Notes: a model not told the origin generated them from the letters alone. A DNA stretch of 63,236 nucleotides, filler included, from Circinaria calcarea (GCA_051942165.1; 4 parts of 4 records of this genome joined end to end with filler, not necessarily neighbours in it), one strand, 5' to 3'; shown: positions 3,748 through 47,570, counted from the first letter of the whole stretch. Program-made: numbers and translations.

Positions 3748-4621
3748 GCTTGCCAACGAAATATGATGCCAGAGCGGGATTCAAAAGTGAATGGACATTA
3801 TGTCTTGAGATAAAGAAATAGCTAAATCCTCGTACCCAGCACGGGGCTGAGGCCGTAGTTCTGTATTTAACTGTGCAAGAAACAGAGCGTAATAAAGATA
3901 CCAAGCTGGTGAATCAAAAGTAGTAGTATACCTCGGGTATGTTAGGTTTGGAGTCCCGGTATCTCCGCATGCATCCAGACAAGCATCCTTTATACAGCGT
4001 AGGATTCGAGGCATGGTTCCAGATATCCTGGCAAATGCATTTCAGCTCTTACTCGCTCGAGATTCCTGCGGGGCTTTACCCAGCGGATCGGGCTGAATGA
4101 AACCTTCCAAGACCGAAGGATCCCGTATGTGTCCTCTCACTCGTCGTACGGAAGAAGGGCGGGATTACGCAAGACATCACCAGGAAGGCAATGCCGTGCA
4201 TATCGTCCAGTTGCTTCATCAGGGGCCATTTGGATTCTGGGTGTACACGGTTGCGTGGTATAGGAAGCTATCTGGTGTGAGGAAGAACCGCGTGTATCAA
4301 TTAGAAAACTAGCGTGATAGTTTACCGAGTAGCTGTACTAAAATACCATAAGGATGCGCTAAGAAGCGCGCCGTAGCTGTGCGTCAGCCTCTGGATGCGC
4401 CTCGTCCGTTGTGATGGCGGTGGAGACTCGAAAGGGTGTGGATGCTCGGGGGGCACAAGCCGAGAGGCACACAACTCCCATACGCTGGAGACGACGGCTT
4501 CCGCAAGGTAGCTGCCATCTCTCTTCGGTTGCATAAGGCTGGTCATGGCATCTCATAGAAAAGGCCTTGCTTGCTCATCCACATCTTCCACCATCCTCAC
4601 AATTCAACAACCAAGCTCATC

Positions 4622-5652
4622 ATGGCCCCGCTTGTCTGGCTCGTAACAGGCTGCTCATCCGGCTTTGGAGAGATCTTTGTGCACAGCCTCCTGGCCCGCG
4701 GTGACAAAGTGATAGCCACGGGGCGAAATGCCTCGGAGCGTTTGGCCCACCTCAAGGAAACTGGTGCCAAAATCCTAGACCTAGACGTTTCATCCCCGCA
4801 GGAGGTGCTCAATGCCAAAGTGGAAGAGGCAATCCAGTGTTACGACGGTATTGACGTGCTGGTGAACAATGCCGGTTATGTGGAAGCAGGTTTGGCCGAG
4901 GAAGTGAGGTGGGTCCCCAAAGGTCTACTCCTCTCGTCCACTTGGAAGCCAGCCGTCATTTGATACCCTTATGCAGCAAAGAACGATGGCTCGATCAGAT
5001 CAACACCAATCTCTTCGGGTCTGTTAATATGACTCGCGCCATCCTTCCCCACTTCCGCACGAAGAGGTCCGGAAAGATTGCCGTGATCGGCTCCACTGGT
5101 GGCTGGTCGGGTGAAGTTGGGGCAGCTCCATACAGCACGACCAAGTTTGCTTTAGAAGGTCGGTGTTCCATGCCCGAGATCCTACACTAGTGATTGCACA
5201 CTGAAAATGTCTTCTCAGGCTATGTGGAATGCCTCCAAAAGGAAATCGGGCAGTTCGGTATTCAAGCCATCATTTTCGAACCCGGCTACTACCGTACCAA
5301 GATCTTTTCGGCTCAGAACTGCAAGGTGTCGCCGCCAACGCACGAGGACTACAACGACCTCTTCGCCGCCATGGTCGCGGGTGTAGGAGCCGTGGATGGG
5401 AAGCAACGCGGGGACGCGGTCAAATGCGTGGAACGCATGATTGATGTGGTCAAGTTGGAGGGCATGGCTGCAGGAAGGGCCATGCCGAAAAGGCTGCCGA
5501 TAGGACCGGATTCGATGGAGATTATGAGGGCAAAGTGCCTGGAGACGTTGAAGATCTGCGATGAGTGGAAGGACTTCGTCTGTAGCACTGATCTGGAGCC
5601 AGAGAAAGGGGAGTTGAATAAAGAGCAAGGGCAATACAACGTGGTCGCCTAA
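4622..5652 (+). CDS. Classical short-chain dehydrogenase/reductase; 3 exons (4622-4908, 4977-5158, 5219-5652)
   Basis: VWLVTGCSSGFG (TGxxxGxG), DVLVNNAG, catalytic YSTTK, FEPGYYRT. Two GT-AG introns restore the frame. Confidence 0.93.
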
Positions 5653-6001
5653 AAAGGGGTTAGCCGGGGATTAGTTTGATAAGAACAGCCACCTTCAGCG
5701 TTTTTGCGAGGATATAGAGACATCCTGTGTTGCACCTGACAATCCAAAGTCAGAGGGCTATAGCGAAAACCCTTGGCTCAGAAAACAGACTCATAGTCAA
5801 AAAGTGAAGGCTGCTGCATACACTCTTGTCAACTTTTTCGGCCACGCCACTGTCAGATGCCCCATTACTGCGTACCTGCTATTAGACCACGTGAATGATG
5901 CAGGATACTCAGTTTTTCATGGAGTGAAGCAAGAGAATATAGTACACAACGTCACGAACACCAAAAGCCGTCCAGGGGTTTGGGTTCCAATTCCGAACCC
6001 T

Positions 6002-7777
6002 TCAGCGTTTACCCACCACCTTAATCCTCACCCCTTTGGTATCTTCTTTCACCAGCGGCACAAAGCCATCCGCCGCGATCTTCACATCCGCCAGTTCCGT
6101 CTCGTACAGCTCCAGTACTCCCTCATCACCCTCCAGCCCAACGGCATATTTTCCACCCGACCCGAACCGCCGGAAAATGCCGGAGAGGCAGAGGTACATT
6201 TCCGCGTACGCCAGATTGATCCCCAGGCACTGCCGGCTGCCCTTGGAGAACGAGAGCAGATATTTGTCCAAGCCGGGGTTCTCGATCCAGCGCTCGGGAC
6301 GGTAGGTCCGCGAGTCCGGGAAAATCGACGGGTCGTGGTGGATCAGGACGCTGGTCATGCCGACGGGAGTACCGGGTGGAATGGCCCAAGTCTTGTGGTT
6401 CTGGGTATCCGTAAAGAGCATTACTCGATCCGGCGAAATCCGCTGCAGGCGGGACGAAACGCCGTAGCTGAGTCGGACGGCTTCTTGAATCACGGCGGTC
6501 AAGTATGGGAGCTGTTCTAACACTGAGAGCGGGTACGAGACGTTGGGGTTCGGAATTGCGTCGCACAGCTCCGTTTTGAGCTTCCGGAGCGCTGGCGGGC
6601 AGGTGAGAAGGTGATATGTTGCTACGGAAAGCGCCCAGGCGGTCGTGGCGGTGCCGGCGCCGACGACGATTTGCGCCTCGTCCGTAAGGCGTTCCGTCGA
6701 TTTATCGGCGTCTGGTAGATTACTTTGAAGGATCTCATGGAAGAGGGTTGGATGTGGGAGATCTTGGTAGGTATCTTGGGGTTGGGCTTTGATCTCCGTG
6801 ATCTGTTTTTTCACTCTCTACCAGTGATGGTTGGTGGTTAGTAATTTGCGTTTCTGTACTTGCAGCGGTGATTCGAGGAACTTACTCGTGCAAGCCGGAT
6901 CACTAGATCAAGATCAGGCGACAGGCGTGCCGCCAGCGATTCTGGAAGACTCTGGATGAAATGAAGGATCCATATCCATTGTTTCAGGAGAGAGCCTTGT
7001 TTACCGGCAGCCACTACCGTGTCGTGATAGGAAGGGTCAAAATCTTTTGCCTCGAGACGGTGGTCAGAGCGACCGTAGGAGTACTCCATAACAACGTCTG
7101 GTTAAAGATTAGCATAACTCCCAGTCGAACCGGCTGGCAAAGCGTGGCCTTGATAACCAGCCGAGCTTACCATTCGTAAACGCTGCATATGCCAAGTTTA
7201 GTGGTATAACTTCGCTGCTTGTTCGGAACCTTTTAAGGAGCTGCTGCACTCTCTCTTCCACAACCGGTTGTAGTCTCCGCACGCTCGCCATGGAGAAGTA
7301 TCTGTTCAATGCTGCCCTCCTAGCCTTGTGGTGGTCATGTGGAGCTGTGGAAAACATTGCTCCAGGAGTGCCGAACTGCTTGGTGTACCATGCCCACTTA
7401 TCACGCTTCTCACCGCTGGCGCTGGATGCGTAGAGCTTATCAATATACTCTGGATCGGAAATATGGAGCTCATATGGATTGATACGAACAATAGGGCCGT
7501 ATTTGGCGTGCAAATCGCGGATATGGAATGTGTACTGACCACGCAGCACCACGTCATAGTAGAATTCGTACCTGTGTCATAAGTTGAGGATGCATATTTC
7601 CCAGAAAATGGCTAGAGAGTAGGAGTACCATAAAGTTAGAGCTGCCAGCTTTGGGCCGGGAAACTCGGATATAGGGCTAAAGTACAGGCGGCGGATTGCT
7701 CCGAGGGCAACATAACAAGCTGATATCACAAACACAAGTGGCCAGATAGACGACGCTGGGAAAACCCAGAAAGCCAT
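6002..7777 (-). CDS. Cytochrome P450, trichodiene-oxygenase (CYP58)-like; 4 exons (7777-7629, 7571-7171, 7097-6886, 6817-6002)
   Basis: [42 protein letters not shown]-helix GAGTATT, EAVR, PERW, heme motif FSKGSRQCLG. Three GT-AG introns. Confidence 0.95.
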
Positions 7778-8766: not shown

Positions 8767-11700
8767 TCAGGTTACCGTCCTCATCGCGGAGATGGGCGTG
8801 GCATCGTCATTTCGTAGCTTTTTGTAGTCGAGGTAGGTTGCTCCATTATCATTATGTCCCATATCCGAGCCTAGTTCGCTAACCTCATCCTCATGCACAA
8901 TCTTGGTCGAGAGACCAGGTTGCGAGAACTGCCCACTTCTCCGGTTGAAAGTTGTGCTTGAGCTGTCAATACTCATGGATGTGCTGGACCTGCCGTGAAC
9001 TAGATCTGGAGTGGATGGAATGCTGGAATGTCTTCCGTCAGGGCTCAAATAACTCGAGTCATCGAAGCCACCCTCGGAGACACCTTCGCCTAAGTCACTG
9101 CCCTCAGTACGAACAGAATGCGAGTGACTATCTTCGAAGGTGGAGATATCACGCCTAGCGCGTTTCGGGCTTGCTTCTTGGTCTTCTTCCTGCTCGGCAC
9201 TATGAGCTAGTTGGAGTCCTTCTACGGCAGCAGCGCATTGATCGGATATATTTCGAATAATATCAGCAATCGCATCTGTCTTGTCACGCAAATGCCTATC
9301 TGCAACGTCTGCCATGCTAAGCTCGCTATATCGTTTACTCCTTTCACCGGCCGGCGGAGTGAAGAAGCGACTTTCCATCTCAGGTGTGACGTGGTCACCG
9401 TCAAAGTTCTTGAACATTCCGTCCAGACTGCCCGTAAGACTGACGGAACGTCGCGAGTGTTTTCGCATGCTTGATGGAATCCTGCCGGATGTGACACTGC
9501 CTGCAGCTTTGGAGTACTCGCTACCGGCAAATGATTGCCCATCATCGGCCTCCTCAGGCGCATCTACGTACTCTGCACCAATATATCCCGTAATCTCTGG
9601 TGCTTGGTTGAGCGAGCGGACGATGTGCTCCATGTGATGAGTTTGACCATCGATAAGGCTACGAAGATGTATGACCACCCTCTGCGCTTCATCACGCTGC
9701 CGATGAATAGTCTTGTTGGTTTGTTGCAGCGAGGAGAGTGCTTTCTTATTCCTCTTTCGCTCTCTTTCGAGTTCTTCTGCGATTTCCTGCTGCAATACTA
9801 ATGCCTCCAATGCATCATCACGCTGTTTCTCGGTTCCTGATAAACGGACGGTAAGGCGAGCAGCATCGTCTTTTTGCTGGTCGATGAGGACAGTAAGGCG
9901 GCGATTTTCGCGCTTGTGAGACTCAATCTTGACCTTGAGATCTTGGGTTTCCTTGGTGAGCTGTTCGGCAAAGGTCTGAAACTTGAGAAACTGCAGATAA
10001 AGGATGTCAGTGTGAATTGGGAGACTGGAAATGTTGGAGTTACCTGTTGCTTCCAGTTTTCAAGCTCCTCCACAAGGAAGTTATTCCTCTTGGATACCTT
10101 GGATATCTCGGTATCCATTCTACCTTTGAGGTTGATGAAATCTTGCCAGGCTTCCACAGCATCTCTGTTGTATTGGTTACGTTCGCGAACAACCTCGTTG
10201 AGGTGTCTCATTGACACCTTGGTCATCAAAGGCTTCTTAACCGCACCACCGAAGATGGCTTTCATGCCAGAGTTTCGTCCCTAATCAGACGTTGGCATAG
10301 TTCACGTACAATAGAAGAGAAGTAACTCACAAGTTTTTCGCAGACATGGTCCATGATACTCATGACGTTATCCTGATTCCACCATTGTGGATCCTGCACA
10401 CTCTCGACCTCTCCGCGCATCACTATGATCTGACCAGCTGGAATCAACTTTCCGCCACCGTACGCTGACCGTAGGTGAGCTGGTACCCCGGACGGCGTGA
10501 CATCACCGCTGAGGGCTTGAGTGAGTCTGTTGATCATCTTAGTTCTCTGTCCTGCAGAGAGAGATGACGGCGGACTCGAAGTAAGGACGAAATTTCGGTC
10601 CAGGTCAATAACGAGGGCATCAGTTGGGGCAGTGAACAAGGTACGGCATTCTGCCGTAACACCCAAAATATATGGGCCAGGCTCCTGAACCATTTCATTA
10701 ACATGACGCGCATGGACTACAGGTTCGTAGAGACCACTCCACTCATACACGCGGACACAGAACCGGACAGTCTCGGCGGCCACAGTAAGCATTGCAGGGT
10801 AGTGGCTGACAAATATAATTCGTCGGGTGGGCGACACAGCGGCTTCAATCACGCCAACAATGTTGGGGATCGACAAACAGGTAAAGAGAGGCCACATGGA
10901 GAAATTCTGGAATCCGGTCGGAGAAGACGGGAATTGGTAGCAGAGCGCGTAGTCCTTCATGTCAATTCGGACGAGATCGTTCAATCTGGGCGCTGGAAAG
11001 CTGAGGATGCGTGAAACTTCCTCAGCGTGGAAAAGGTTGGTCGCTTTATTCCAATGAATCCACATTCCTCGAAGGTAGTCTCCAAGCAGGTCGTACAAAG
11101 GATATCTAGACAGAAAGCTGAGGCAGTATGGGATCCAGTAAGTCTCTTCCGGCGAGTCGTAGAAGTCGGACTCCGACTTCCTACGCAGATCACGTATTGT
11201 TTGTGCGCGTTTCTCATCAGCTCGCGACCACACGCGTAGGGCAATGCCGTACAATGTGTGAGACGAATCTTGCTGGAGGACGAAAGAGTGGTGTACGCAG
11301 TGTGGTTGGCTGCGACCAGTAGATATTTCCACATCATGAGGGAAGCAGGCCTAAGAGTCATTAGCTACCAGCAATTGGATACACCGGCAGTATTGGTTAA
11401 GTGTTTTAGGGTCACTCACCCTCATGGCTGCGTGAAGGGCTCGAGCAATCTCGTTGTCTTGCTCGATTCTCGGGCTGCTCCCCAGTATTTCCGGAAGCCA
11501 AAACTGGGCCACGGCCCCCTTCATGTGGCCTATCTTGCCTTGAGTCGGAACTGGCGCCTTGAGCCACTGTGATGGCTCCCGACCCACACCGCACACCATG
11601 TAGGCATGAGTCAGGGTCTTCGGCGTCCTTTGGGTGGGCTTCGCGTTGAGAGTGGACGGGATGGGTTGGGTGATGCGTGAATGAAGGGAGGAGGTCCGGC

Positions 11701-15781: not shown

Positions 15782-15881
15782 NNNNNNNNNNNNNNNNNNN
15801 NNNNNNNNNNNNNNNNNNNNNNNNNTTAATTAATTAANNNNNNNNNNNNNNNNNNNNNNNNNNNNNNNNNNNNNNNNNNNN
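15782..15881. other. Artificial contig-joining spacer
   Basis: N44-TTAATTAATTAA-N44; the 12-mer gives stops in all six frames. Confidence 0.98.
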
Positions 15882-31656: not shown

Positions 31657-31756
31657 NNNNNNNNNNNNNNNNNNNNNNNNNNNNNNNNNNNNNNNNNNNN
31701 TTAATTAATTAANNNNNNNNNNNNNNNNNNNNNNNNNNNNNNNNNNNNNNNNNNNN
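31657..31756. other. Artificial contig-joining spacer
   Basis: N44-TTAATTAATTAA-N44. Confidence 0.98.
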
Positions 31757-33047
31757 TAGGACACCGTGGCACCTTCCTCCTGACTCTTGCAAACGTGCTG
31801 GATCTCTTCCCCAATCCAGTCCTGAACTTCAGGGTGCGCTGCGAGGTGGGTGATCACATAAGTCAAGGTAATAGCAATAGAATCGTGACCCGCAAAATTG
31901 AAGACGAAGATGTTGCCGAAGATCTCGGACTCGGTTAGGCCCATGTTGGAGCGACGCCCCTCCATCTTGCCATGATCCTCTTCCGCCGCCGCCTTCGCCT
32001 CTTCAGATGCGCGGACCATAGCGCCGATAAAGTTACCCGTGTTGCCCTTGCCTTCGGCGATCAGGCGTTTTTCCTCTTTGATTGTCTTGGCAATATGCGA
32101 CTTGAAGATGCTCGTCGCTTCCCCGACGAGAGACCAATGTTTGGGGAGGTAGCGCCGCAGGCTACCCGTGAGGACTTTGGGGCCCAGAAGCATGATCAGG
32201 ATCGCGTTCTCCAGAATTAGATGGAGCGAATCTTTATAGGTCAAGGAATTTCCTTGTTGAACTTCTTCGGCCGCGCGATCAAAGGAATACGATTTCCCGA
32301 ATCCGGTGGCCGAGAGGACATGCAGAGAAAATCGCCTCACGTCTTTGCCAGTGTGTCTAATATCGGGAGTTCCTTTCCAGTATTCGAGCATTTCTTTGGC
32401 CTGGCGGATGCATTCGGTCCAGACAAGATTCATGTTCGGTTCGCCGAACGGAGGGCCAGTAGCTTTACGGTGTCTTTGCCAATCTTTACCCTCAACCTAG
32501 GAGAATAGGTTAGATGACTTATATTAATGCAAGGAAACGATAATACATGCAGTAGAGAGATTAGGGCCGAAGACATCAAGCACCGCTATAAAATCAGTTT
32601 CGTCAGCAAGTGCCGTAGAACAAAAAATAAAATAAACGCACCCATTATCTCCAAAGGTCTTTTAAACTCGGTCCTCCGTTGAAGTAATTCCGTGAGCGTT
32701 TCTGCATTGCAGACGTACAGCCAGTTCTTGCCAGTAGTAACTAGAATAAACGCATCACCGAGTTCAAGAAAAGTATTAGCCCTGTCGTGAACGTCCCATC
32801 CGCGATGAGCGTATCGAGTAAAAGATCCTGACCCCAAAGGAATCCAGCTCAGCACGTAGTCGATGTAGGGCCCGAGATAATCGCTGACCAGCATCCACGC
32901 CGGGCTCTCAGGATTGACGGGCACCACGACGATAGGAGCCCCAACACGGCGCGCAACTGCGTAGTTGGAGGCCAGAGTGTATGCATTCCACAAGACCCAG
33001 GTGATGGGGAGCAAGAGCAGCGCCGACCAGAGTCGGAGATCCGCCAT
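31757..33047 (-). CDS. Cytochrome P450, 3'-truncated by contig end; exons 33047-32642, 32585-32551, 32496-31757
   Basis: N-terminal TM; FGPNLST|VEGKDWQRHRK; I-helix GNIFVFNFAGHDSIAITL; LAAHPEVQDW. Intron 2 (32550-32497) is GC-AG. The heme motif lies beyond the gap. Confidence 0.88.
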
Positions 33048-34787
33048 TGCCAGTCACAAGCAGTCGATTGGAGGGCAGTTAGCAAAGGAGAAGTCTTTTC
33101 GGTCAGATGATGGCCGGTGGCAGAAAAAGATGGAGGTTGTAGCAAGCGACGGGTGTGCTGTGCTTGCGGATCCCCTTGTTTGTTGGTTACACTTTCGATC
33201 AGGTGAATGAGTTAATTAATGCACGCCTGTGCCTCCTATACACATGAGTCTGGAAATGGATTGATTGGACATGCTGTTCTTGGGCAATCGGCCTGTGTTA
33301 CGGTATGAGTCAATCGACCGGCCGAGGTTAGCACATTCAACCACCATCTCCATCTCCGACAAGGCTCAGCGTGATAGACCTATTCTACCTGCAAGGCTAC
33401 AGCTTCAGTAGGATGTTCCCTTGCAATTTTCTTTCCTTTGGGTGCGGCGCAGCGTTTATTGCCAGCGCTACCTTAGTGGCTGTTGTTACACAGAATCCCT
33501 ACTGATACAGGGCTGCTTAAGCATTATGGTGCCCGGTAGCTAATGCGCACGAATCAAGCGTCAGACGCGAGACTAAGGGAGTATAGTACATAAAATACCG
33601 TCAGATTGATTTTCGAGACAAGCCTTGTGCGTACCGCAATTAGAATTAGCTCCTTGTACCTCCGTTGTCTCCTTGCCCACCAATATTCTGCGTGTATCTT
33701 GGCCACACTGCTTTTGCCAGCTGGAGCGGAGCAGAGCAGTTTTCCGCACCCCCTTCGTCGACGGCAGGGATTTCATCTCGACTCGATTCTTCCTCGGTCT
33801 CTCACCCTGTTGCCTAATCTTGGCATGAGGTGCTGTCTTAGCTTCGCCGCCAATACTCTCCGCACATTGATCAGCCGGCACACAGTGACGTTTTCATGCC
33901 ATCCATGACGGGCTCCTGAGGCTCGGTAGTATGTCCTATGTGACCTGCGCCCCCTTTGACCGAGACCGATAGCCTCCTCCCCCCCCAGTTCCTCTCTCAA
34001 TTCTCTCCTGCTCCCTTCCATCCCATGATACCCAGACACTCCCGACTTCCCAGAAACCTCAGTTTTGGCTCCAAGAGGTTTTCTTTCGACCTCAAACTTG
34101 CAAAACTCTCTTTCTTGGTTCGCCATGCTGCTCAGTCCCGTCGTCCTTCAGCGTCTCCAGTTTCCCAAGTCTCAGCAGGATGACTCCAAGCGTTTCTCCT
34201 CTACGTACACGACGACCACAGCCGCTGCACAGGTTCGGTTCGCCGCTTCTCAGCAGCCGTTCTCCAGCGCCCTGGTGAGATTCGCCGTCGTGGCACTTAT
34301 GATAGCGGTTATCTGGGCCAGGGTACAGGCCAAGGATCACAACCTATATAATTTGGAGTGGGATGATTGTAGGTTTCGCCCAGCTATGCCTCGGACACAC
34401 TTTATTTACTACTAGGCGAATGGCTGATAGAGAGTTCTTTTTAACTAGATGCATCTGTGCTTGCTTTGGTAAGCTACCACGGTATCAAGGTTACTACCGT
34501 GTAAGAGTATTAACCAAGATTGCGTAGCTTGGTGTGCTGTACACGAGAAGGCCATTAGTATGTGTAATTGTGTAAAATTGGGGAAAAGGTAGTGGAGTTT
34601 TTAGTTTGACTCATGCAGCCTTTCACTACTACCTTACTATTATAAATTAGATATCCAAGGCGCAGTGAAATTTACTCTTCGGGAACTATGGAATCCAAAT
34701 AGTATACATTCAGACGAACGTTGTCCTCCCTCCGCATGCATTGCACCGGCCTACTTTTCTACCCTTTGAACACCTCTTCATATAACA

Positions 34788-36077
34788 CTAGACTCCTAAT
34801 TCTCGAGGCCGGGCATAACTAGACATCTCGAATTCATTCCGTACATACACTCGGTTAGGAGGTATGATATGTTCTTGCGAGACTTTGGGACCACCACTTT
34901 TCTCCGTGGTCTTGGGAATCGTCGAACGAAACCGCCAAGAGGAGTTCCACAAGGCCAGGATCCCGCGGCCCTTGATAGATCGGGTCCCGTATAGGATCCT
35001 CTTGCGAGACTCTTTTGTGTAATCAGGAACCTTGACTCTTTGGTTTTGCTTTGTGAAGAGAGCACGAAACGAGGCTAGGCAAATGATGATTATAGCTATA
35101 AAGAAGCCATCTCCGATCAGCCTGGGGTAGCTCATTTGGAAGGAGCGAATCAGAACGACTCACCGATAGTATTTTCAATTGTATTCCAAAAGTATAACCA
35201 AGTTTGCTCGGGCTGAGCGGAGAACCGCATAACGACCGCAAAGCGGATGATAGAGATTACCATGGTGATGACGACGAGGCAGAAAATTGCGGCCAAGGCA
35301 AGCTTCTGCCGGAGACGAATGCGTACTCTCCACAGCATACGGATGGGGATCGAGAGAACTGCAGGGTCTGTTAGATAGAGAGTAACTCACAGGGGGAGTT
35401 GATTGGAAGGTCATGCTTGCTAAGTCTGTTAAAACGTCCATTGCACAGTTGGTACATAGCGTTACACGCTGGAATTGTATTGCCTGAGAAGTCGAGCAGT
35501 TCCTAACGATGTCTACAAATGGTGGTGTAAGACAGTTGAACTGAATCGTCCCAATACCAACAAAATAGGTCGCGAGAGTGAACGAGAATGTGATCCACCA
35601 ATGAACTTGTTGCCCAGAAACATTTTCACCAAGCCGTCGGAAGAAAAGAAGAAAGGAGATCTTAACGCTCCAAAGTCCTGACATGAAAAAGACTATGATA
35701 GCGAGCATCCCCCTTAGGTAGGTCTGGCTATCCGTGATAAAGGTTGGAGGGATGCTCAACGACTCTCCACTGGCGAGGTGCAATGCCTGGTACATGTACC
35801 CGCTGATGCATTGCCATATAATAGCATTGGCAAGCAATAACACCAAAGCAGTCAGAACGAAGGCATCATCCAGAAAGAATTTCTTGAAGCTGCGAAGGCG
35901 AACCCAAGCACGGAAGATAACAAATAATGTTGCGAGGGCGAAACCACCCCAAACGAAGGCCTGGGTAAGTGTTAGTATGGGAGGCTGATTCCGTAGTAAG
36001 TCGGATTACCGTACGAGGAAAGTATCTTGTCCAATTCTGGGTTTTGGAGTTAAAAACCCGGAAGGGACGGAGCTCAT
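34788..36077 (-). CDS. PTH11-like (fungal rhodopsin-domain) integral membrane protein without CFEM; exons 36077-36015, 35960-35417, 35358-35164, 35095-34788
   Basis: FRAWVRLRSFKKFFLDDAF, LWSVKISFLLFFRRL, DVLTDLAILSIPIRMLWRVRIRLRQKLAL, WNTIENTIAIIIICLASFR. About seven hydrophobic segments. Intron 2 needs a GC donor. Confidence 0.85.
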
Positions 36078-36883
36078 CCTGTCAATGGAAGAAGGTACGT
36101 CGGATGTGTAGCTTAGAGCTTGGAGTTACACTATAAACGGAGGTTCAGGCTATGATAGCTGTGAAATAAGTGGGAATAGTCCCAGCGTTGTTATACTTGT
36201 CGATCTTAGTCGATGACAGTCGATGACACGATCTCTTAATAGGAATGCGGCAGCAGATTGAGGCATTCTCGATGCTAATGCTGGTGGAGGCTTGCTACCA
36301 CGAGGCGCAGCTAGTTTTCCCTCGCCATAGATGGTCATCTTTTAGCGATTCGGAGGTTGGGACTGAGAAATATAGCGTGCAATCCTGCGGAGAGGAGTCA
36401 TGCACGGCGTATTAAGGTAAATATAGGGCAAAGTACATGTAGGCAAGTTAGTCGAAGTAGGTCCCGCCGCATGCCCGAGACCACCCCTTGTCATTTGTTT
36501 GACCCCAGTAAGCGCTGGAAGCCGATTTTACGCGTGCGTATCGGAAGTCTTCCGATTGACGCTAGGGTCAACCCGAGCTGTCAGGGAACTGTAGTCTGCC
36601 AGAAAGTCTAATTGCCGACGGTAATCAAGCGGCATGGAGCTGAAACACTTTTTGAGGGAATAATTAATTTCATGGTTTCAGGCAAGCAAGCGCAGACAAT
36701 GCACTAGTCGGATATCCCTCAACCGTCAGCGCTAACATCATCTCCCTTCCTCGATAGTCGATATAGCATGGCTTATTTGTTTGGCAAGACCGCCGCAGCA
36801 TCAAATCTGCCCGCTCCAGCCACTCAATTAACTAGACATTCAAAGTACACGATCCAGAGCCTTGCGCTCCTGCCTACATTCTT

Positions 36884-39000
36884 TTACACTACCTCAGCAA
36901 GCGGTCTTTTCTCAAGTCTATCCGAAGTCTTTCCCCGTTTTGCTAGGACCTTCAGGTTCAGCCACTCCATGCCGAAAGTGAATATAAGCGCCACGCAGGC
37001 GGCCACCAATGCATAGATAAAGACAACATGAACTGCAGCTGCGTAGAGTTCACGGAGAATCTGGAGCATGTCCGGGGTCGGAGTCAACAGTTGCAAGTTC
37101 GCGGCCCCAGCCGAAATCAGTGCAGAAGGATCCACTGTTGGTAAGCGTTTGGAGACACCCTTAGATAGATTGTTTATGAAGATATTTTGGCTGATAGAAG
37201 CTGCGAGCGCACTAAGAGAGAAGAGTTAGAATATGCCAAATTGTAATCACTCCTTGGAGAAGCTTACCCTCCAAGCTGCCAAGAAAATACGGAAATAGCT
37301 ATAGAAGGATAATTAGTCCTGAGACCAGAAATCTTCTAGGGATACTCACCATTTCCCGTTGGAATGTCGTCTTCACTATGAACAAATCAGTACTAATCGG
37401 TGGTTAAATGACAGCGAGCCAAAGGTACCTGAGGACGGCCTGTAACGCAGTATACGGTACGTTCATTCCAGAACCCATACCTAGCCCGCAGATCGCAAGG
37501 TATGTAGCCCATACAACGGTGGGAGTACCGACTCCAATTGTAGTTAATAGCCCATAACCTATTATGCTAATAATTGTTCCTGTAATCATATATGGAACCT
37601 GGTTATCAAAACTTAGCAAGTGCTATTTATAGGCTGATTACGGTGGTATACGAACATAATATCCGTATTTTGCTATTAGTCCGCCGACAATAACTGTAGC
37701 TGTTATTTGTGGGGCTATTAATGCGATGAACTTAATACCGCTCTCAGTAGCGGAGACGCCTTGGATCGATTGGAAATAAATAGGCATATAGTAAGCGTAC
37801 TACGACCAAGCTCCATTAGCATATCAGAGACACATTAGAAGCTAGCGTTACGTACCACTATAGATGCCATTCCTAGAAAGAAGAGAAAGAGTGCTCCCAT
37901 TAAGATTGACCGCTGCCGTAAAACGCGTAAAGGAATAATAGCTGTCTCGCCACGCTTCCACTGGATATAGGAGAAAACAAGAAGAAGCACAACAGCACCA
38001 GCGAAAAGTCCAATAACTATAGGAGAATTCCATGGCTTACTTTGCCCACCCCATTGCAATGCTAACAACATACAGCAGACAGCCCCAATGAAGAATACAG
38101 TACCTAAACCATCCATTTGTCGAAGCTTCTCTTTGAATGGTAACTGCCGGCGACCTTCCTTGGAAATTTTTAATTTCAAAAAAACTAGAATGGAAAGCAG
38201 GGTAAAGCCTCCTATGGGAACGTTTATCCAAAAGCACCATCGATATGAAATATGGTCGGTGAAAGCACCTCCTAAAACAGGCCCAACACCTACACTAATA
38301 CCAAACATACCCACAAGAAATCCGAGATGCAGCGATCTTTTCTCCATAACAACAGTGTGAGCAACGATCACTAGAGCTCCTTGGAAAAGACCTGCAGCGC
38401 CGATACCGGCAATGGCGCGTCCGACGATGAAAGTTGGCGAGTTTGTGGCCGTTGCACATATAATCGAGCCGACTATCAAATTGCATACTGTTAGCAGCAA
38501 CGGGCAAACAGAGCCAGGGACTTCAGACCTTCGAACAACATAATCGAAACAAGATATACAACTTTGACGTTGAAAAGCTTGTATAATGCTCCGAAAGTGG
38601 GCTGAAGGGCAGTAATTCCCAGGAGGTAGACGCTCGCATACCACGAAATGTCATCTCTTCCGGGGAGCTTAGTCTCGTAAGATCATCAGAGCTATATTAC
38701 TTACAAACTATGAAAATCTGTTGTGATCCTGGGTATTGCCACCCCAATAATGGCAACGTCCAGAGCAATAAGGAATGTACCAAAACAAAGCGATAGCATT
38801 ATAATCGCCAGCTTCCACCCATGTAGATACTGATCTGCTGCATCCGCCGACGGATTGATAAAGGCGGCATTGTCTCTCGAGCCTTCGAGCACTTCTGAAG
38901 ACTGACCTTTACCATGTTTAATGATATGAGATTCAGCCACAACGTTGTGCAAGGACAGCGAATCATGGCGGGAGACTGGAGATTTAGGACGATTGTTCAT
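36884..39000 (-). CDS. MFS drug/toxin efflux transporter (DHA2, 14-TM type), about 8 exons
   Basis: [90 protein letters not shown]. GT-AG introns join the pieces in frame. Confidence 0.92.
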
Positions 39001-40131
39001 TTTGTTAAATGGAAATAACTTCGTATTCTGTTGCTATCTCTGGAATATCAACTCTCGCTCAAGAATACCAGCCGGTCAGTAGCAAATAGGAAGAAGTTCA
39101 GGTGACTTTTACTAACGAGAAAAAGTAAGTAGCCCAAACTTTCTGATATGCTTGGCTGTGGGCTCTGCTGTCAAGAAATTAACATGATAGGCAAGTTTCT
39201 CTGATTGGTACCGATCGACTAGATCCCGCAAACACTATTCGTGGCAAAACGCCCTAACTTGCTATTCTACATCCTTGAGGATGAGGGCTACCTACCTAGG
39301 TAGTCAGACATGCTTGACTGCCTGCATGAGAGGGCCTAGGCCGTGTTGACGGAAGGGGAGTTTGGGTGGTTCGGCGATCGAACAAAATCTCTGCGTACCA
39401 AGCTCCTAGCTCCAAACTGCAACTCGCAGGTTGAGGGATTTAATAACGTGGGAAGGTTGGCGTTAGGTGGGCTGCATTAACCCGCGCTATACTGCCTAAC
39501 CAAATAATACGCCATTTTCGCGATGGTGAGCTAATCATAGATCCCAGACTCCACAGGGTATTAATTCTTTTACAGCGCTTGTAATATAACCAACCGAACT
39601 TTTCGCTTTAGCACAGATCTTCGCCAAGATCGCTTACGAGTATTATTGCCAACAAACAAACGGCTGACCACTTATTCTCCATTATTTGAATCGGCCATAC
39701 ACCGAAGAAGTAAACTTGTCAGAGACCGCTCCTACCCGAGTACAGCCTCCACGCCGTGCCTCAGCTGAGTCTATGAGATCGCCCATTTGGTTGGTTTCTT
39801 ACCGGCATTAAACTGGGTCTCGGGTGGCACATATGAGCCATACACAGCTCTTCCAGGCCTACGCCCGAATGCGGGAATATGGGGCAGAGAGACGGGAACA
39901 GAAAAGGAGGAGCCGTATCAGAAAGTGGGAAAGGATGAGAAAAGCAAAGTGGTTAATATATTCATCTCGCAGAGTCCGAATTGCTTTGAAAAGTTGTAGC
40001 ATATTTTCGAGCAAGCCACTATCCACATCTTTCTAGACATTTTATTCAAACTTCATATCAAGCGTACCTCACCAAGTCGTCCGAAGTGTTAAACCGAATC
40101 CGAATAGTATATCTACAATTCTTCCGCGAAT

Positions 40132-41959
40132 ATGTTTCTTGAAGCGCTTCCAGCTTTCTTATCCGCACAACAGCCTTTATGTGCCATTCCACTTCCAATA
40201 TTAGCAGCTGCTGTTCCAGTAGTTTTGCTCCTTCTATGGCGGCTCTTGCGATTTACCATTTTACCTGCTTTATATCCTAATCGGCCAAAGGAGCTTCCCT
40301 ACTGGTTTCCTAGTGCGTGTTCTATATCCAAATTCTTTCCAAAGTTCTATTTATATATATTGCTAATATCTTGGTCTAGTTATCAGTAATTTTCAACGGA
40401 CATTCATAGTATTACTCACTACTGATCTCTCCTTCAGGTCATACTTGGTCTTTTTTTAGAGATCCAGTAAAAGTGGTCGAAGCTGGAATGTGAGTGGTCT
40501 TCACCGAATGTGGATGATTATGAATTGAAGCTCAGCAGCAACCTCACCAATCACACTCGAGAACCCTTTGCTATACAAATATTAGACCGGAAATTCTACG
40601 TTATTACGGCGCCCGAAGACGTTACCGCTGCTTACAAAGCCACCACAGCATTATCGTTCGATCCGTTTTTGAACGAGTCTCTACGTGCTTTTGGACTGGA
40701 TGCTCGTTCGGTAAAACTTGCATGGCACCCTCCATCTCCAGGAGATGCCTGTTACCGTGAACCGAACCCCGTCAATCCTAAACAAAAGCCCTTTATTCAC
40801 TGGATAAAGGATATATACCGACAAGCGCTACTTCCAGGAGAAAAGATGACTCATATGGCAGGCCAGTTCCACGATTGTCTTGACCAAAACCTGCAATGGC
40901 ATAGAATATCAACTTTTGCTCTAAAACATATAGAGGAAAAGGGTGCAATTCGTCTATCTCTAAAAGATTTCACCAGAACAACAATGTTAGAGGCTATCAC
41001 GCAATCATTGTTCGGCGATCGTCTTGTCAAAGCCGAGCCAAACCTCATCAGATACGTCGCCGAGTTCAACGACAAGGCCTGGGTGTTGATATATCGTTAT
41101 CCGGGACAGTCTGCTGGAGTGTTGGACAAACGAACAAAGATCATGGCCGCTTTGGACCAATATAGACAAATCCCAAAGGAAGAACGAACCGCAGGTGGCG
41201 AATCTTGGGCCATTGAAACAGCGATAACCGGACAAGGTATCCTCGGCATGAGCAACGAGAGCGACAACGCCCTCCTTTTGCTGATATACTGGGCGTATGC
41301 AACACGGAAGCTCCATTTGACAGCTACGCTAACTTTCAGACAGAGCGAACTCCAATACCTCCTGGCTCTGCTTCTGGCTTTTTTCTCACCTTCTGTGGAA
41401 CAAGTCTCTCTTGGCTCGCATCCGATGCGAGATCGCCCCGGCATTCCAAGCTGGAAAGCTTGACTTCGCCTACCTTCTGTCCTCGTGCCCGCTCTTGAAC
41501 TCAGCTTTCTTGGAAACACTGCGACTGAGTGGTGGCACCGTGTCCACTCGCAAAGTCATGTCACCAACCCTGATTGGGGGGAAGCTCCTGCAGGCCGGCG
41601 GAGACGTGCTCATCATGCACCGAGCTCTGCATTCGAATGAAAATGTGTGGGGGAGCTCTGCCGCATGCTTTGATCCCGAGCGCTTTCGCAAGGAGAAGGC
41701 GCTTAGCACCCATGCGTCTTACCGTCCCTTTGGAGGCGGGTCAACGTACTGCCCCGGGCGAGTCATTGCCCGGCAAGAGGTGTTTATCTTCCTCGCTCTG
41801 ATGCTGGATCGTCTGGACGTGGAGCTGGCTCCCGACCAGACATTCCCGTTGCTCGACAACACCCAGCCTTCGATTGGGATTACTGGGCCTCGGCCGGACA
41901 TGGATCTCTATGTGACCGTGAGCGAGAGGAGGTATCCTGCGGTTGCTAACGGCAACTAA
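40132..41959 (+). CDS. Cytochrome P450 of the CYP7/CYP8-like (sterol 7-alpha-hydroxylase-like) group; multi-exon with a probable 6-nt micro-exon
   Basis: PNRPKELPYWFP, REPFAIQI, spliced I-helix WAANSNTSWLCFW (WAxxxNT as in CYP7), ETLRL, FDPERF, heme motif PFGGGSTYCPGR. Confidence 0.9.
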
Positions 41960-42581
41960 CACGGGGAAAGAAAGCTTCGGTAGCATCTAGCGATTATTAT
42001 TTATTTTTTTTCTATTTTTTTTTGTGTGTTATTCTAGCGGCGATGGCATTCAGTCGGGTTTGGTAGGCACGAAACGGGAATTATTTCGAATCCCGTCTAT
42101 CGAATTTTACCATTGCTCACTCGCGCTACCCCAGTTCCACCTTAAGCCCGCTAAAAGAAACCTAGCACCCCCCGTAGCTCATCTGAACGACAAAAGGGGG
42201 CATAAGTAACAGAGACAAACTTTTTAAAAGTTTAGGGCCAGTCAGGCTTAGTTGGAGAATCTCCCCCCCTCCAAATCCATTTGAATACCTTTGACGAAGT
42301 ACTGGGTCTCCGTCGCGCCGATTCCAGTTATCTCACTAATAATATCAAAGGAACCGGGCTCAATTAGGGTTCTGGTTCTGCGATGACTCTACTCGATTTA
42401 ATGGATTAGATAGTGTGGGCGTACTAGAAAAAAATCTAAACTAGATAATGCCCCCAACGGCACGCATTCCATCCAAATTTAATTGGCTAGATTAATAACC
42501 CCTGACGATGCCAACCAGAGAAGCAAAATGTGGGAATCAGCCGGGCCAAGAAAAAACCGCCACAAATCCACCCCGACGCCC

Positions 42582-43935
42582 TTACGCCTCATACCCATCC
42601 CTCTCCCCCTTCCTCCCCACCATTAGAAACATGGGGGAGAAAATGCCCTCCCGGCCTCCGTCCACCAAGCTCCGTGCCGCAAGCTCCAACGTCTCTGCCG
42701 CTCGCACCGTTCCCCCGGGACACAGCCTCAGGCCCTCAAGGCTCTTAAGCAGCCCAATCACGGCCATGCGGCCCCACTTGGCCGTCCGAAACACCGTCAG
42801 CGCATCCCACCAGCTCTGTATATCTCGCCACCGCCCCGCGAGTGGGTACCACCAGGGGACCCGGTCCCTCTTGTTGGCGAGGTCGTCTTGGCGGGTCAAG
42901 GTGAAGCCGGCGGTGCACATGGCCGCCAGAGCCTCGGACTGGGTAACGAGATGAGGGATGCCGTCGCCGAGCTCGATGCGGTGCCGGATAGAGCGGTGGG
43001 CGGGGTTGAGGGGAGAATAGGAAGGGGTGAGAACCCACTCGTACACGGCGAAGACGCCGCCGGGTTTTAGGACCCGGTGGATCTCGGCGTACACGGCTGA
43101 GAGGGAGGGGGCGTGGAGAGTGGCTTCGATGGCGTAGATGGCGTCAAAGGAGTTGGAGGGGAATGGGATTTCCTGCAGGGGGGGACCCGCGAAAGAATTA
43201 GCATTCGGGGCTTTATATACTGCGGATGACGGGTGGATAGGGACGATGGATTAGGTTGGAGGGGGACAAGCCAAGCATATCGTACCATAAAGTCTCCCTT
43301 GACAAACTCCACTTGACTCTCCAGGCCAGCATCGTGGGTATGCTTCCTCGCGCGCTCGATTTGGTACGCATTGTTGTTCAGTCCGACGACATGGCAGTCC
43401 GTGAAGGTGGCGATCTCACGCGCGGGCCCGCCGACACCGCAGCCGACGTCGAGGACTTTCATCCCAGGCTGAAGGTTGAGCATGGAGGCGAGGTAGTGTT
43501 CGTGACGGGCCAAGGCTTGGAGAAAGCGCTCCCCAGGGTGAAAACGGCAGAGGTGGAAAGATTGCGCCCAGCCGGACTCGAAGAGGTCAGTTACGAGATC
43601 GTAGTAGCTGCAAGATGAATAAGCAGCGATCGAAAAGAAATATATTGAACGAAAGGGAGAGGGAGAAAAGAGTGGTCGCAGTAGAGCACGCACTTGTTTA
43701 CCAGCAACATATATCGGGATTCTCTGTGCTGTCTCCGCTCGTCAGTGTCCTCTGAGTCTTTTCCGCCTTTTCCCCAATGCGTCAAGTACTCGTTCATCAC
43801 GCGCCGGTGGGAAGCATCGTCTTTTTTCATCATCGACATAAAAGGCGTCTTCTCATGTGCGGAGTCTCCGTGCATCGTCTCTAGAGAGCTTGCCTCGAAG
43901 CCGGCTTGTTTTTCAAAAATTGAATAGGATGCCAT
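42582..43935 (-). CDS. Sterol C24-methyltransferase (Erg6/SMT family), divergent copy; exons 43935-43694, 43607-43286, 43172-42582
   Basis: YYDLVTDLFESGWAQSFHLCRF (Region I), ARHEHYLA, VLDVGCGVGGPAREI (SAM motif), GLNNNAYQ, YAIEATLHAP, YAEIHRVLKPGGVFAVYEW, IELGDGIP, IFSPMFLMVGRK. Confidence 0.93.
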
Positions 43936-46255
43936 GTTAACTCGAAAGGATATAAAGCTCAGAAGTGGTACTGATGTCAAAGAGGGGGAAAAAACTGTAC
44001 TCGAACATTCGAAGTGAAGAGACTTTATACTCTTCTTATAGTGACAGTAATAACTATGTCTACCTTGGGGTCAAGCTCCGATACAGCAATGCTCCGATAG
44101 GGGAGACACTGGGATGCCGCCTCCATACTCATAGGCCATACGATCGAAGGATTCCGCCTTTAAGATCCAGATGTGCTCACGGGCTATGCTCAGCATCAGC
44201 TGTGATGCTTAGCGTCCGTTTCGAAGAGTGGATTGTGATGCGCCCCGTCACGACCAGCCGGACAGCATCTTTCAGCCGGATACTTGGTTTGAGGCAAAGA
44301 TAGTGCGCGCCGCTGAAGCTAAAACTTTAGTGAAAGATTGAGTTGGATCGTGGGAGTTATAACGACCCTGCCAATGTGTCCTGGACGTGCGTGCCGCATG
44401 TGGTGGTCCATAGCCGTATGGCCTGAGATTGTTCCGGGTTCGCCAAAGTCTCTTTTTTCCATCCTTGATTTGGTGCCCGAGTCAGCTTTCCAGCATATTC
44501 CACAAGTAGGCTGCAGCTTTACCATAGGCTACCTGTCGTGCAGAGCCAATTAGAAGAAACTAGCCCAGGATTATGAGCGGGAAAGTTCTCAGCCTTGTTT
44601 GGTGATATCTTGGCAGAGATAGCTTGACAATGGGAGTGTACAGAGGGGTGACAGCTCGGGCTAGAACACACAAGGCCGTAGCATGATAAATACTGACCCG
44701 GATCCCTATTTTCCCACACAAAAACAGTCCGTGCTGTAAAATAACCACCCTGGTGTATTCTAGCCCGAGCTGTCCACCCTCTGTAAACGTGCAACTTGAG
44801 GGGGGTGAAAATGCACTTTTTTAAATTGGTGACCTGAATTTGGGATATCTGGTATTCTTTCTCCCGCCAATCCTCCTAATAAGGTCATTCTACCCGTTAT
44901 TTTACCCCGTCCCCTTTTCATTTCCCTGGCTCCTCTCCTCCCTTTCCGCCTTCCACTTCCTCCCACTCCCCCTTCACCTCCTTCCCGAAAGCCCGGAATT
45001 CCCCCGCGCAATCGTTGATACTGCCCGTGATTTGACTTGTTAGCAGCAAAGAGAGGAAACCCACAATCGCGGCCCGTATCAGGAAATCGGTCGGGATGGT
45101 ATATTCTTGATTCGTGGACTCGAGGCTTAGTTTGATCCCGGCTAATGTATTCGCTGTTCCCTTTTTTTGGGTAGCGTTTTTAGTTGGTTCTTTCGTTTTG
45201 GTATCCGTTTTAAGCTCCTCGGCAGCCGCCAGCATGCCTGATGTTTGGAAATCGGTCGGAAGGGTAGTCTAATCAATTCAGCAAGAAAAGCCTATTGTAC
45301 AGTCGAAAAAAGGTTAACCAGCACCGAACCTTTATTTATATCCACTATTCCTGCATCATTGCAGTCTATACCGCACAGAATCGGGTCGCTTCTTCGTCGA
45401 GGATGTTGAAAAACGAGGAGCGAGTGCCTCAAACAATCGGGTTCTTGCGGCTCCACAGTCGTAAGAGGATGCTCGAGAAATGCCAACTCCGATGCGTTGA
45501 TGTAGAGGAGCGTATGAGACGGCTTGGTTGACTATTGATCGACGTACTAATGGCATAGACATCGCCTTTATTGGGGATATTCAAGTTGGGACTAAATTAG
45601 AACGTCTGATTATTTGATTATCCGATCAAAGGCTCTGGCAGGCCGACCCTATTAGAAATCTCATGGGTCGGAATAGGGGTAACGAGAAATGAAAATAAGT
45701 AGCGTAAGGAAAACATCCTCGATGGTAAGTAACGCAAAACCTACATCTTTACAGATATAGCGAGGTAAACATATACACCATCGTTACAAAGGTCTCTTAA
45801 CTCCCTTCCGTTGATAATACTATTCAATCTAACCGAAAGGCCTTGTATGCAACCCATCCCTCTCACTCCCAAGCATCTAATGCTAGCAGAATATAGATGT
45901 ACATACCACTATAGAGAAATGGAAAGCACCAAGGGCCTACAGCAAGACCGAAGCAGGGAGGCTTATAGCTTCAGGATAGACTCATTATAAAGGGGATGCT
46001 CAAAGTTAATCATCTTTCGCGTAGAGGTATTCCCATCGCACTCCACATGCTAAAGAATATCCCCCAGTGATCCAAGAAGCTAGCATTCTCTCCTCAGTGC
46101 TTCTAATCTCCAATTCTCCATCCAGTTTTTGCTATCCCGACATTCAACTGTCCCAAAAGCCTGCGCAATCCTGACAAGCGTGCACGCTGCTTCCCCAATG
46201 GTTTTTTTTGGTTGACCGGAGCAAAGCCCAGAGACCTCCACTGAATGCCACACGC

Positions 46256-47065
46256 TTAGACGCCCAATTTCCTTGCCGCCTCGTCATGGGTACACATCTT
46301 CGTGACGAACTCAACCATATCACAGACAACCACGAACACCAAGACATAGCCACAGCACTGTAAAACCCGCTTCCACCGCGGTACTCGATTGGCTAGTACG
46401 TCCTGCCACCCAACGGCATTTCTTTGCTGGTTTGACAATCGTGGCTCCCGCCTCCTCGTGTCGTTATCGACAGCTGTCATCAGCTGATCCACAGTGACTG
46501 TGCCAGATAATCCCAAAAAATGAAGGATGCCATCGCTGCCGTGCCAAGCTTTGTTATCCTTCGGGATGATGAGGATACGGTTCAAGACCGCTAGTCTTTG
46601 GCCTTTTGATAAGCGTGGTATAGCCTTCTTCTCGTCTTTCCCCACCGCCGACCATAGGTTACCGTAGGAGGCAGTATTATGGAGTCCTAGGCGATTGTAA
46701 ACCTCTTGGATTTCAGCGTCGGGTTCCCTTTGCGTCTCTGTTCGCAGGATGGTTCTAGCTGTCGATATGGTTGGTTGCGATGGGGTCCAACAAGACTGCA
46801 ATTGTGGATTGCGGGTCTCAAATTCATTCTTTGTTTCTAGAACAGTGGACGAACTTTTCCAAGCACTTTCGAAACTTTTCCCTGCTTTAGGGCCACTATG
46901 TATGTAACAGTACTGAATAAGTCGAGATGAAGCTATCGTACGATCTACCCTCCCGCAGCTTCCTGGCAGCACCAGAGGCAAATTGTGTGTGATCCTAGAG
47001 AATGGTTGTAAATAGGCGGTAAATAAACCGGTAGAGCGAAGTGATAAGGTTTGTAGCAACGACAT
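46256..47065 (-). CDS. Hypothetical protein (269 aa), possible mitochondrial presequence and C-terminal hydrophobic segment
   Basis: Long ATG-started ORF with Ser/Arg/Leu-rich N-terminus and GYVLVFVVVC near the end; no family recognised. Confidence 0.4.
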   Translation of the reverse strand: MSLLQTLSLRSTGLFTAYLQPFSRITHNLPLVLPGSCGRVDRTIASSRLIQYCYIHSGPKAGKSFESAWKSSSTVLETKNEFETRNPQLQSCWTPSQPTISTARTILRTETQREPDAEIQEVYNRLGLHNTASYGNLWSAVGKDEKKAIPRLSKGQRLAVLNRILIIPKDNKAWHGSDGILHFLGLSGTVTVDQLMTAVDNDTRRREPRLSNQQRNAVGWQDVLANRVPRWKRVLQCCGYVLVFVVVCDMVEFVTKMCTHDEAARKLGV

Positions 47066-47470
47066 TTCAACTAAAGTGCGATCGAACAGCTCTCTCTCGG
47101 CGACTAAAGTAGAGATAAAATGCAGAGGAGAGCCACAATAAGAGGTCTGAGAAGTTCTCCCTAAGTGGTATCAGCATTCCACCCTTGCATACACGAAGCA
47201 GGAATTTGCCTTACAAGCCGCATAAAGGAATGTGCGGCCAAGTGCTTCCGGGGTGACACAAAGCCAACTTTCCGGACCTCTTTACAGCAGAACAAATATC
47301 AGACCGGACTTTTCTGATAGACTAAGCAAATGATTATTGAATACGCATTTAATGCAGCAATCCTTCCTTCTAACAACGCACAAGACGTCCCTGTCTCTAG
47401 TTGTATACCAGTAAATATCGTTTAGCTGTAGCCATCTTGCAGCATTATTCTGCGTAACGTAAAAGAACCA

Positions 47471-47570
47471 NNNNNNNNNNNNNNNNNNNNNNNNNNNNNN
47501 NNNNNNNNNNNNNNTTAATTAATTAANNNNNNNNNNNNNNNNNNNNNNNNNNNNNNNNNNNNNNNNNNNN
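47471..47570. other. Artificial contig-joining spacer
   Basis: N44-TTAATTAATTAA-N44. Confidence 0.98.

Follow-up and report, generated by a model that had tools for sequence, protein, structure and literature searches.

Filamentous fungi often carry additional copies of genes of the ergosterol pathway, and for most of these no role is known. In Aspergillus fumigatus, Smt1 is a non-essential-type sterol C-24 methyltransferase (SMT) paralogue beside canonical Erg6; according to the available part of PMC10441335, it shares 27% identity with A. fumigatus Erg6 and 31% with yeast Erg6. Animal CYP7A1 (cholesterol 7-alpha-hydroxylase), CYP8B1 (sterol 12-alpha-hydroxylase) and CYP8A1 (prostacyclin synthase) are membrane-anchored cytochromes P450 (P450s). 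TRI12-type/DHA2 pumps occur in fungal metabolite clusters. Here we describe a locus in Circinaria calcarea where relatives of all three kinds of protein are encoded side by side: a divergent SMT, a P450 of the CYP7/CYP8 clan (P450-2) and a TRI12/DHA2-type pump of the major facilitator superfamily (MFS). The locus lies in a 63,236-base stretch of DNA (hereafter, the window). We give about an even chance to the explanation that these genes have been inherited together as a conserved metabolic module without a core enzyme, which would modify and export a sterol. The individual families are well known; what appears new is the conserved SMT-P450-MFS combination in fungi, a putative tailoring cluster that lacks a core enzyme and is centred on a duplicate of a primary-pathway enzyme. 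A full-text literature search found no paper describing such a module in fungi.

The window contains three spacers of the form N44-TTAATTAATTAA-N44 (15782-15881, 31657-31756 and 47471-47570), and therefore consists of four contigs joined one after another. No physical linkage exists between features on different pieces, so any cluster read across a spacer is an artefact. The locus is on the third piece (31757-47470; 15,714 bp) of the C. calcarea metagenome-assembled genome (MAG). This contig is cut at both ends, and the artificial spacer at 31657..31756 marks its true left end. The original prediction listed five genes within 31757..43935. Pfam matches and gene models located all five, and thereby established their identities: an incomplete P450 (P450-1), a PTH11-like gene, the MFS pump, P450-2 and the SMT. 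C. calcarea is a lichen-forming fungus, and the MAG bin could hold DNA of another fungus in the lichen. Despite a possibly mixed bin, the closest relatives of the SMT and P450-2 were those of a lichen fungus, Lambiella insularis.

A synteny check for an SMT, a CYP7-like P450 and an MFS pump, proposed with the original prediction, returned the trio in one other fungus and the SMT-P450 pair in another. In Tricladium varicosporioides (Helotiales), the SMT (KAH8649752.1), P450 (KAH8649753.1) and MFS (KAH8649754.1) orthologues carry consecutive accessions on the same 490,795-bp contig, and their accession order, SMT-P450-MFS, is the gene order of the window. In L. insularis, the P450 (MMC13_007860 = MCJ1479176.1) and the SMT (MMC13_007861 = MCJ1479177.1) have neighbouring locus tags on a 190,569-bp contig. 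Gene order is normally tracked by consecutive accessions and locus tags, and these records indicate conserved adjacency outside C. calcarea. The comparison of neighbourhoods covered the SMT, P450-2 and MFS genes. Members were found in Tricladium, in Cudoniella, in two lichen fungi of the ostropomycetid group and on one metagenome fragment. This narrow distribution could reflect many losses or a transfer. The retention of an SMT beside a pump and a P450 resembling sterol hydroxylases, in two fungal classes, provides a three-gene hypothesis that is open to heterologous expression, and offers one case of an extra ergosterol-pathway copy with fixed partners. Core-less clusters of this kind are skipped by standard cluster finders and can be recognised through synteny.

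The SMT gene (42582..43935, minus strand; exons 43935-43694, 43607-43286 and 43172-42582, stop codon included) matched Sterol_MT_C (PF08498, E 1.5e-21) and the class I S-adenosylmethionine-methyltransferase profile PF08241 (E 2.4e-11). Our hand model was identical to the public 384-aa protein Q9187_002528 [Circinaria calcarea]. The gene is convergent (tail to tail) with P450-2, with 622 bp between them. With exon 3 as query, 42 of 1,756 candidates matched at E<=0.001, self included. The top relatives were L. insularis MMC13_007861 (78% identity), T. varicosporioides KAH8649752.1 (70%) and a protein from a 1.4-kb metagenome contig (68%); all remaining matches were at or below 58%. In a maximum-likelihood tree of 41 SMT-like sequences, the window SMT and these three relatives formed a clade (SH-like approximate likelihood-ratio test [SH-aLRT] 100, stem 0.7). 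The clade fell outside that of the 28 canonical ERG6 rows, which joins yeasts and Pezizomycotina (support 95). The window SMT was 45-52% identical to canonical ERG6 rows, whereas canonical ERG6 proteins across Pezizomycotina classes are 66-73% identical to each other. The Tricladium member of the clade was only 47% identical to the ERG6 of another Helotiales fungus. The tree and these identities indicate that the SMT, which the original prediction had called divergent, represents a separate paralogous lineage instead of an orthologue of canonical ERG6. Placement of the Tricladium member as a Leotiomycete ERG6, that is, a fast-evolving ERG6 in a strict species tree, cost 207 log-likelihood units (approximately unbiased test, p-AU 7.5e-9) and was rejected. 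When all four contigs were searched by tblastn with canonical ERG6, the only match was the SMT at 42582-43935.

Comparison with A. fumigatus Smt1 was made by degree of divergence. According to the values given in the available part of PMC10441335, Smt1 resembles the distant Exophiala/Cladophialophora-type rows of our tree (33-39% identical to the window SMT), in which no Smt1 sequence was included. By the same measure, the clade of the window SMT would be a different, intermediate lineage, with conserved P450 and MFS neighbours. A metagenome scan with the alignment of the SMT clade gave 296 pattern matches, of which three were confirmed, on contigs of 1.3-2.4 kb without context. A metagenome SMT-like gene on a 1350-bp contig, matched through the clade's pattern for Region I or its flanks, was 54% identical to the window SMT.

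Residue numbering and the list of SMT motifs were taken from the accessible part of bioRxiv 10.64898/2025.12.19.695621. The window SMT keeps Region II (LDVGCGVGGP; DxGxGxxGP), Region III E195 (IEAT) and Region IV GG/G217 (KPGG). It thus shares with fungal ERG6 the Methyltransf_11 and Sterol_MT_C pair, the length of 384 aa, Region II, E195 and the GG of Region IV; however, it has F81, S83, A86 and L91 where fungal ERG6 has Y, Y, G and F. Among 137 columns conserved in at least 90% of the 28 canonical ERG6 rows, 13 were altered in all four members of the clade. The most informative change is in sterol-binding Region I, which reads D-[LF]-Y-E-Y-G-W in canonical proteins and D-L-F-E-[SF]-G-W in the clade. 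The Tyr-to-Phe change at the equivalent of yeast Y81, a natural equivalent of Y81F, is one of the 13 clade-wide changes; position 83 is Ser or Phe. Further along Region I, the window sequence GWAQSFHL aligns with 84-GWGxxFHF-91; G84, W85, F89 and H90 are kept, and G86A and F91L are changed. The Lambiella SMT has G86 and L91, the Tricladium SMT has A86 and F91, and the window SMT has A86 and L91. In the accessible part of the same preprint, F91 is kept in every SMT tested, and G86 is among the residues conserved in functional SMTs. Because of these deviations, caution is needed before ordinary SMT activity is assumed. The 13 changes at conserved columns suggest altered specificity of the enzyme and not redundancy. 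The clade would also allow Region I residues tied by mutagenesis to repeated side-chain methylation to be tested in natural enzymes.

P450-2 (40132..41959, plus strand; Pfam p450 E 4.2e-33; 535 aa) has four exons (40132-40312, 40438-40489, 40536-41294 and 41344-41959, stop codon included). Exon 4 keeps ExxR (ETLR), PERF and the heme-Cys motif (FGGGSTYCPG, which fits FxxGxxxCxG). Hydropathy analysis of an orthologue revealed one N-terminal hydrophobic helix, which fits a microsomal type of P450 anchored in the endoplasmic reticulum (ER). The public model of this gene is only a 308-aa C-terminal fragment (Q9187_002527). With the large exon as query, three proteins were found at E<=0.001 among 1,326 candidates: those of Lambiella (68%), Cudoniella acicularis (G7Y89_g13100, 65%) and Tricladium (63%); the word-based search was incomplete, and these are three homologues found, not three existing. 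A P450 profile search of 1.84 billion representatives returned 13,935 P450s at E<=0.001, of which 295 were at E<=1e-30. When the best full-length matches were aligned, members of the P450-2 orthologue group were 78% and 66% identical to the Cudoniella protein, and 20 other relatives dropped abruptly to 27-37%; those named at this level are from Xylaria, Delitschia, Sclerophora, Teloschistes and Amniculicola. The abrupt fall indicates that the orthologue group is rare within a broader fungal family.

The P450-2 family profile was compared with PDB sequences. The highest scores were for CYP8B1 (155 bits), CYP7A1 (142 bits) and prostacyclin synthase (126-136 bits), followed by CYP17 (99 bits) and CYP51 (96 bits); the gap from the CYP7/CYP8 group to the next family was about 27 bits. 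Foldseek analysis of the AlphaFold model of the Cudoniella orthologue (mean predicted local distance difference test score 88.5) placed CYP7A1, CYP8A1 or CYP8B1 at all of the listed ranks 1-14, with TM-scores of 0.68-0.83, followed by CYP51. These animal enzymes are therefore the nearest solved structures to P450-2, and they are likewise membrane-anchored. However, P450-2 belongs to a fungal lineage, and its identity to CYP7/CYP8 structures in structural alignments was 17-19%, far below family level. Membership of a CYP family is usually set at ~40% identity. The label "CYP7-like" in the original prediction, judged by profile and modelled fold, is thus right at clan level but does not extend to membership of the CYP7 family. 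At 17-19% identity, the label says little on the regiochemistry of P450-2. A metagenome scan with the P450-2 alignment gave 89 pattern matches, none of which was confirmed, and ESM Atlas returned only generic "Cytochrome P450" clusters for this protein.

The MFS gene (36884..39000, minus strand) matched MFS_1 (E 1e-19) and TRI12 (E 2.1e-13), as expected from its earlier description as a DHA2-type exporter; TRI12-type/DHA2 pumps of fungal metabolite clusters share this pair of profile matches. The gene is intact. Its eight exons (39000-38705, 38656-38529, 38472-37856, 37799-37656, 37598-37429, 37375-37350, 37298-37268 and 37211-36884, stop codon included) form an open frame of 579 aa, all introns are GT-AG, and the model is collinear with the Tricladium orthologue, which was used as a guide. 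A crude hydropathy scan of that orthologue gave 13 partly overlapping segments, against a DHA2 expectation of 14 helices. The main exon matched 1,576 proteins among 8,000 candidates. In the matches listed, Tricladium KAH8649754.1 was the best (78%) and the next was at 63%. In database sources, homologues are annotated as pumps for toxin efflux or antibiotic resistance. No 100%-identical MFS protein of at least 360 aa was among the public matches returned, although the window gene is intact; together with the fragment model of P450-2, this indicates that public annotation under-calls the locus at 36884-41959.

P450-2 is transcribed away from the pump, as originally described, and the two genes are separated by 1,131 bp (39001..40131). 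This divergent intergenic region is presumed to be a bidirectional promoter, and the arrangement would fit co-regulation of the two genes.

The second-best MFS match (63%) was from Neofusicoccum parvum. In the SMT tree, the sister of the clade was the SMT of Diplodia seriata (57% identical to the window SMT), whose Region I reads D-L-Y-E-E-G-W. Both fungi belong to Botryosphaeriaceae. The two relatives hint at a related module in that family.

From family membership we infer the following pathway, including its substrate, step order, hydroxylation and export. The module would divert an intermediate of ordinary ergosterol synthesis, either a delta-24 sterol or a lanostane. The SMT paralogue would alkylate the side chain at C-24, and its altered Region I may permit a different substrate or a second methyl transfer. 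ER-anchored, CYP7/CYP8-like P450-2 would then hydroxylate the sterol, and the TRI12-type pump would export the product or shield the cell from it. Pfam searches of open reading frames (ORFs) on the 15.7-kb contig, which is cut at both ends, revealed no core synthase or cyclase domain. A scaffold enzyme would be unnecessary if the module taps a delta-24 intermediate of the ergosterol pathway. In the available part of PMC2878339, 24-ethyl sterols are major in Glomeromycota and rusts, and are not reported as major in Ascomycota. A bolder version of the module can be envisaged, in which the trio would be a self-contained cassette present only in ostropomycetid lichen fungi and the Tricladium/Cudoniella group (aquatic and wood-inhabiting Helotiales), possibly transferred, and would produce an oxysterol with unusual alkylation at C-24, for example double alkylation, for secretion as a signal or antifungal. 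Its SMT would be a natural Phe-81 enzyme with a chemistry that, to date, only mutants of the yeast enzyme have provided. We consider this bolder version unlikely.

Several findings weigh against a conserved sterol-modifying module. Adjacency in Tricladium and Lambiella was read from accessions and locus tags and not from DNA, so the neighbourhood and the orientation of the genes there are deduced indirectly. No Lambiella MFS was present among the best 120 of the 1,576 MFS matches, and conservation of the pump was thus seen in one other genome. Cudoniella has the P450-2 orthologue, but no Cudoniella member of the SMT clade was among the 42 matches to SMT exon 3. A tree joining the SMT clade to Pezizomycotina ERG6 was not rejected (p-AU 0.12), which leaves room for a fast-evolving ERG6 that branches basally in Pezizomycotina, and the placement of the clade outside all ERG6 is accordingly not robust. 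The status of the SMT as an extra copy in C. calcarea has phylogeny as its basis. Given their residues at positions 86 and 91, the window, Lambiella and Tricladium proteins may differ from ordinary SMTs or have only weak activity. Comparison of the MFS/P450-2 intergenic region with the region upstream of the SMT gave one shared 10-mer, against a shuffle mean of 1.6, which is not above chance.

Among other explanations, the one that best survives is that the SMT and P450-2 provide an optional or stress-triggered side branch of endogenous sterol synthesis and remodel membrane sterols, for instance in response to antifungals, cold or desiccation. The MFS protein would then be a co-regulated pump for drugs or sterol intermediates and not a product exporter. 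All three gene types would suit a response to sterol or drug stress; the enzymes are nearer to primary sterol enzymes than to typical enzymes of secondary metabolism; and the contig carries neither a core synthase nor a pathway regulator. The available part of PMC10441335 also describes duplicated ERG genes as common in filamentous fungi. However, the module is limited to a few genomes, which is unusual for a general stress function, and the 13 SMT changes at ERG6-conserved positions argue for altered specificity over redundancy. We therefore regard the remodelling explanation as doubtful, though worth keeping in view.

The original prediction also raised the alternative that the SMT is a self-resistance copy. 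In this case, an inhibitor-insensitive SMT would belong to a larger cluster whose core enzyme lies beyond a contig end, and whose product blocks the methylation of sterols at C-24. The contig is cut at both ends and has a second P450 at its left end, and the Region I substitutions could in principle lower inhibitor binding. However, the part conserved between fungal classes consists of SMT, P450 and MFS, with no synthase shown, and this makes self-resistance less likely. The SMT lineage is also old: at 45-52% identity to canonical ERG6, it is unlike a recent duplicate of a target gene. Self-resistance is thus quite unlikely as the function of this copy.

The substrate may also not be a sterol. 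A green alga has SMT-like enzymes that methylate squalene and botryococcene. By analogy, the window enzyme could methylate another isoprenoid or lipid olefin, and P450-2 would oxidise the product. Region I deviates at positions 86 and 91, which are conserved in the SMTs tested according to the accessible part of bioRxiv 10.64898/2025.12.19.695621, and A. fumigatus Smt1, another SMT-like paralogue, shows no role in ergosterol synthesis according to the available part of PMC10441335. In contrast, the window SMT retains the Sterol_MT_C domain and most SMT hallmark residues, and its partner P450-2 is nearest to sterol-metabolising P450s by both profile and fold. We judge a non-sterol substrate to be very unlikely. 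Finally, fungal genomes encode P450s and MFS pumps in very large numbers and the sharing of promoter motifs was not above chance, but rare orthologues of all three genes are consecutive again in Tricladium and two are adjacent in Lambiella, and an incomplete search found the P450-2 orthologue group in no more than three other genomes, so that chance neighbours without a common function are hardly credible.

Two further genes lie to the left of the trio and are counted here as its neighbours. P450-1 (31757..33047, minus strand; Pfam p450 E 2.8e-20 on 31757-32496; ATG at 33047) comprises the N-terminal ~400 aa; the C-terminus with the heme-binding part is removed by the contig end. The original prediction described this P450 as truncated. 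It is indeed incomplete; however, it is not degraded, because 31757 is a true contig end. The splice reading gave two introns, the second of which needs a GC donor. Comparison of P450-1 with PDB sequences revealed nothing at E<=1e-5.

The gene predicted to encode a PTH11-like membrane protein (34788..36077, minus strand) matched Fung_rhodopsin (PF20684) on two exons in different frames (E 1.6e-07 and 2.5e-14), which bears out the prediction. The two matches jointly span profile positions 2-222 of 237, i.e., a seven-helix domain. Pth11 proper has an N-terminal CFEM domain. No CFEM domain was found in the scanned ORFs of the window gene, and its first exon (21 aa) is too short for one. Intron enumeration showed that a 58-nt GC-AG intron (35416-35359) is required for the frame, which is otherwise shifted. 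The integrity of the gene is therefore uncertain. The reading frames of P450-1 (32541-32594) and the PTH11-like gene (35359-35416) can each be kept by a GC-AG intron whose donor begins with GCATG. Either this fungus uses GCATG donors, or the two genes are damaged.

No Pfam matches were obtained for ORFs to the right of the SMT (44001-47170) or for those between P450-1 and the PTH11-like gene, and the 3.5 kb from the SMT to the right contig end is without a recognisable domain. A 304-codon open frame in this part (46259-47170, minus strand) had no Pfam match, and its best ESM Atlas score was 0.75, which gave no lead. This frame is either an orphan gene or non-coding.

The first and fourth contigs carry genes that are not linked to the trio. 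A velvet-family regulator gene is present on the fourth contig (54915-55946; Pfam Velvet E 1e-54). The first contig, likewise separate, encodes a P450 (5-1447, minus strand), a UbiA-type prenyltransferase (2681-3616, minus strand), a short-chain dehydrogenase (4559-4960, plus strand) and a further P450 (6005-7576, minus strand), followed by a DENN-domain gene (10265-11350, minus strand). By its gene content, the group at 5-7576 resembles a meroterpenoid-type set of tailoring genes truncated at the contig end.

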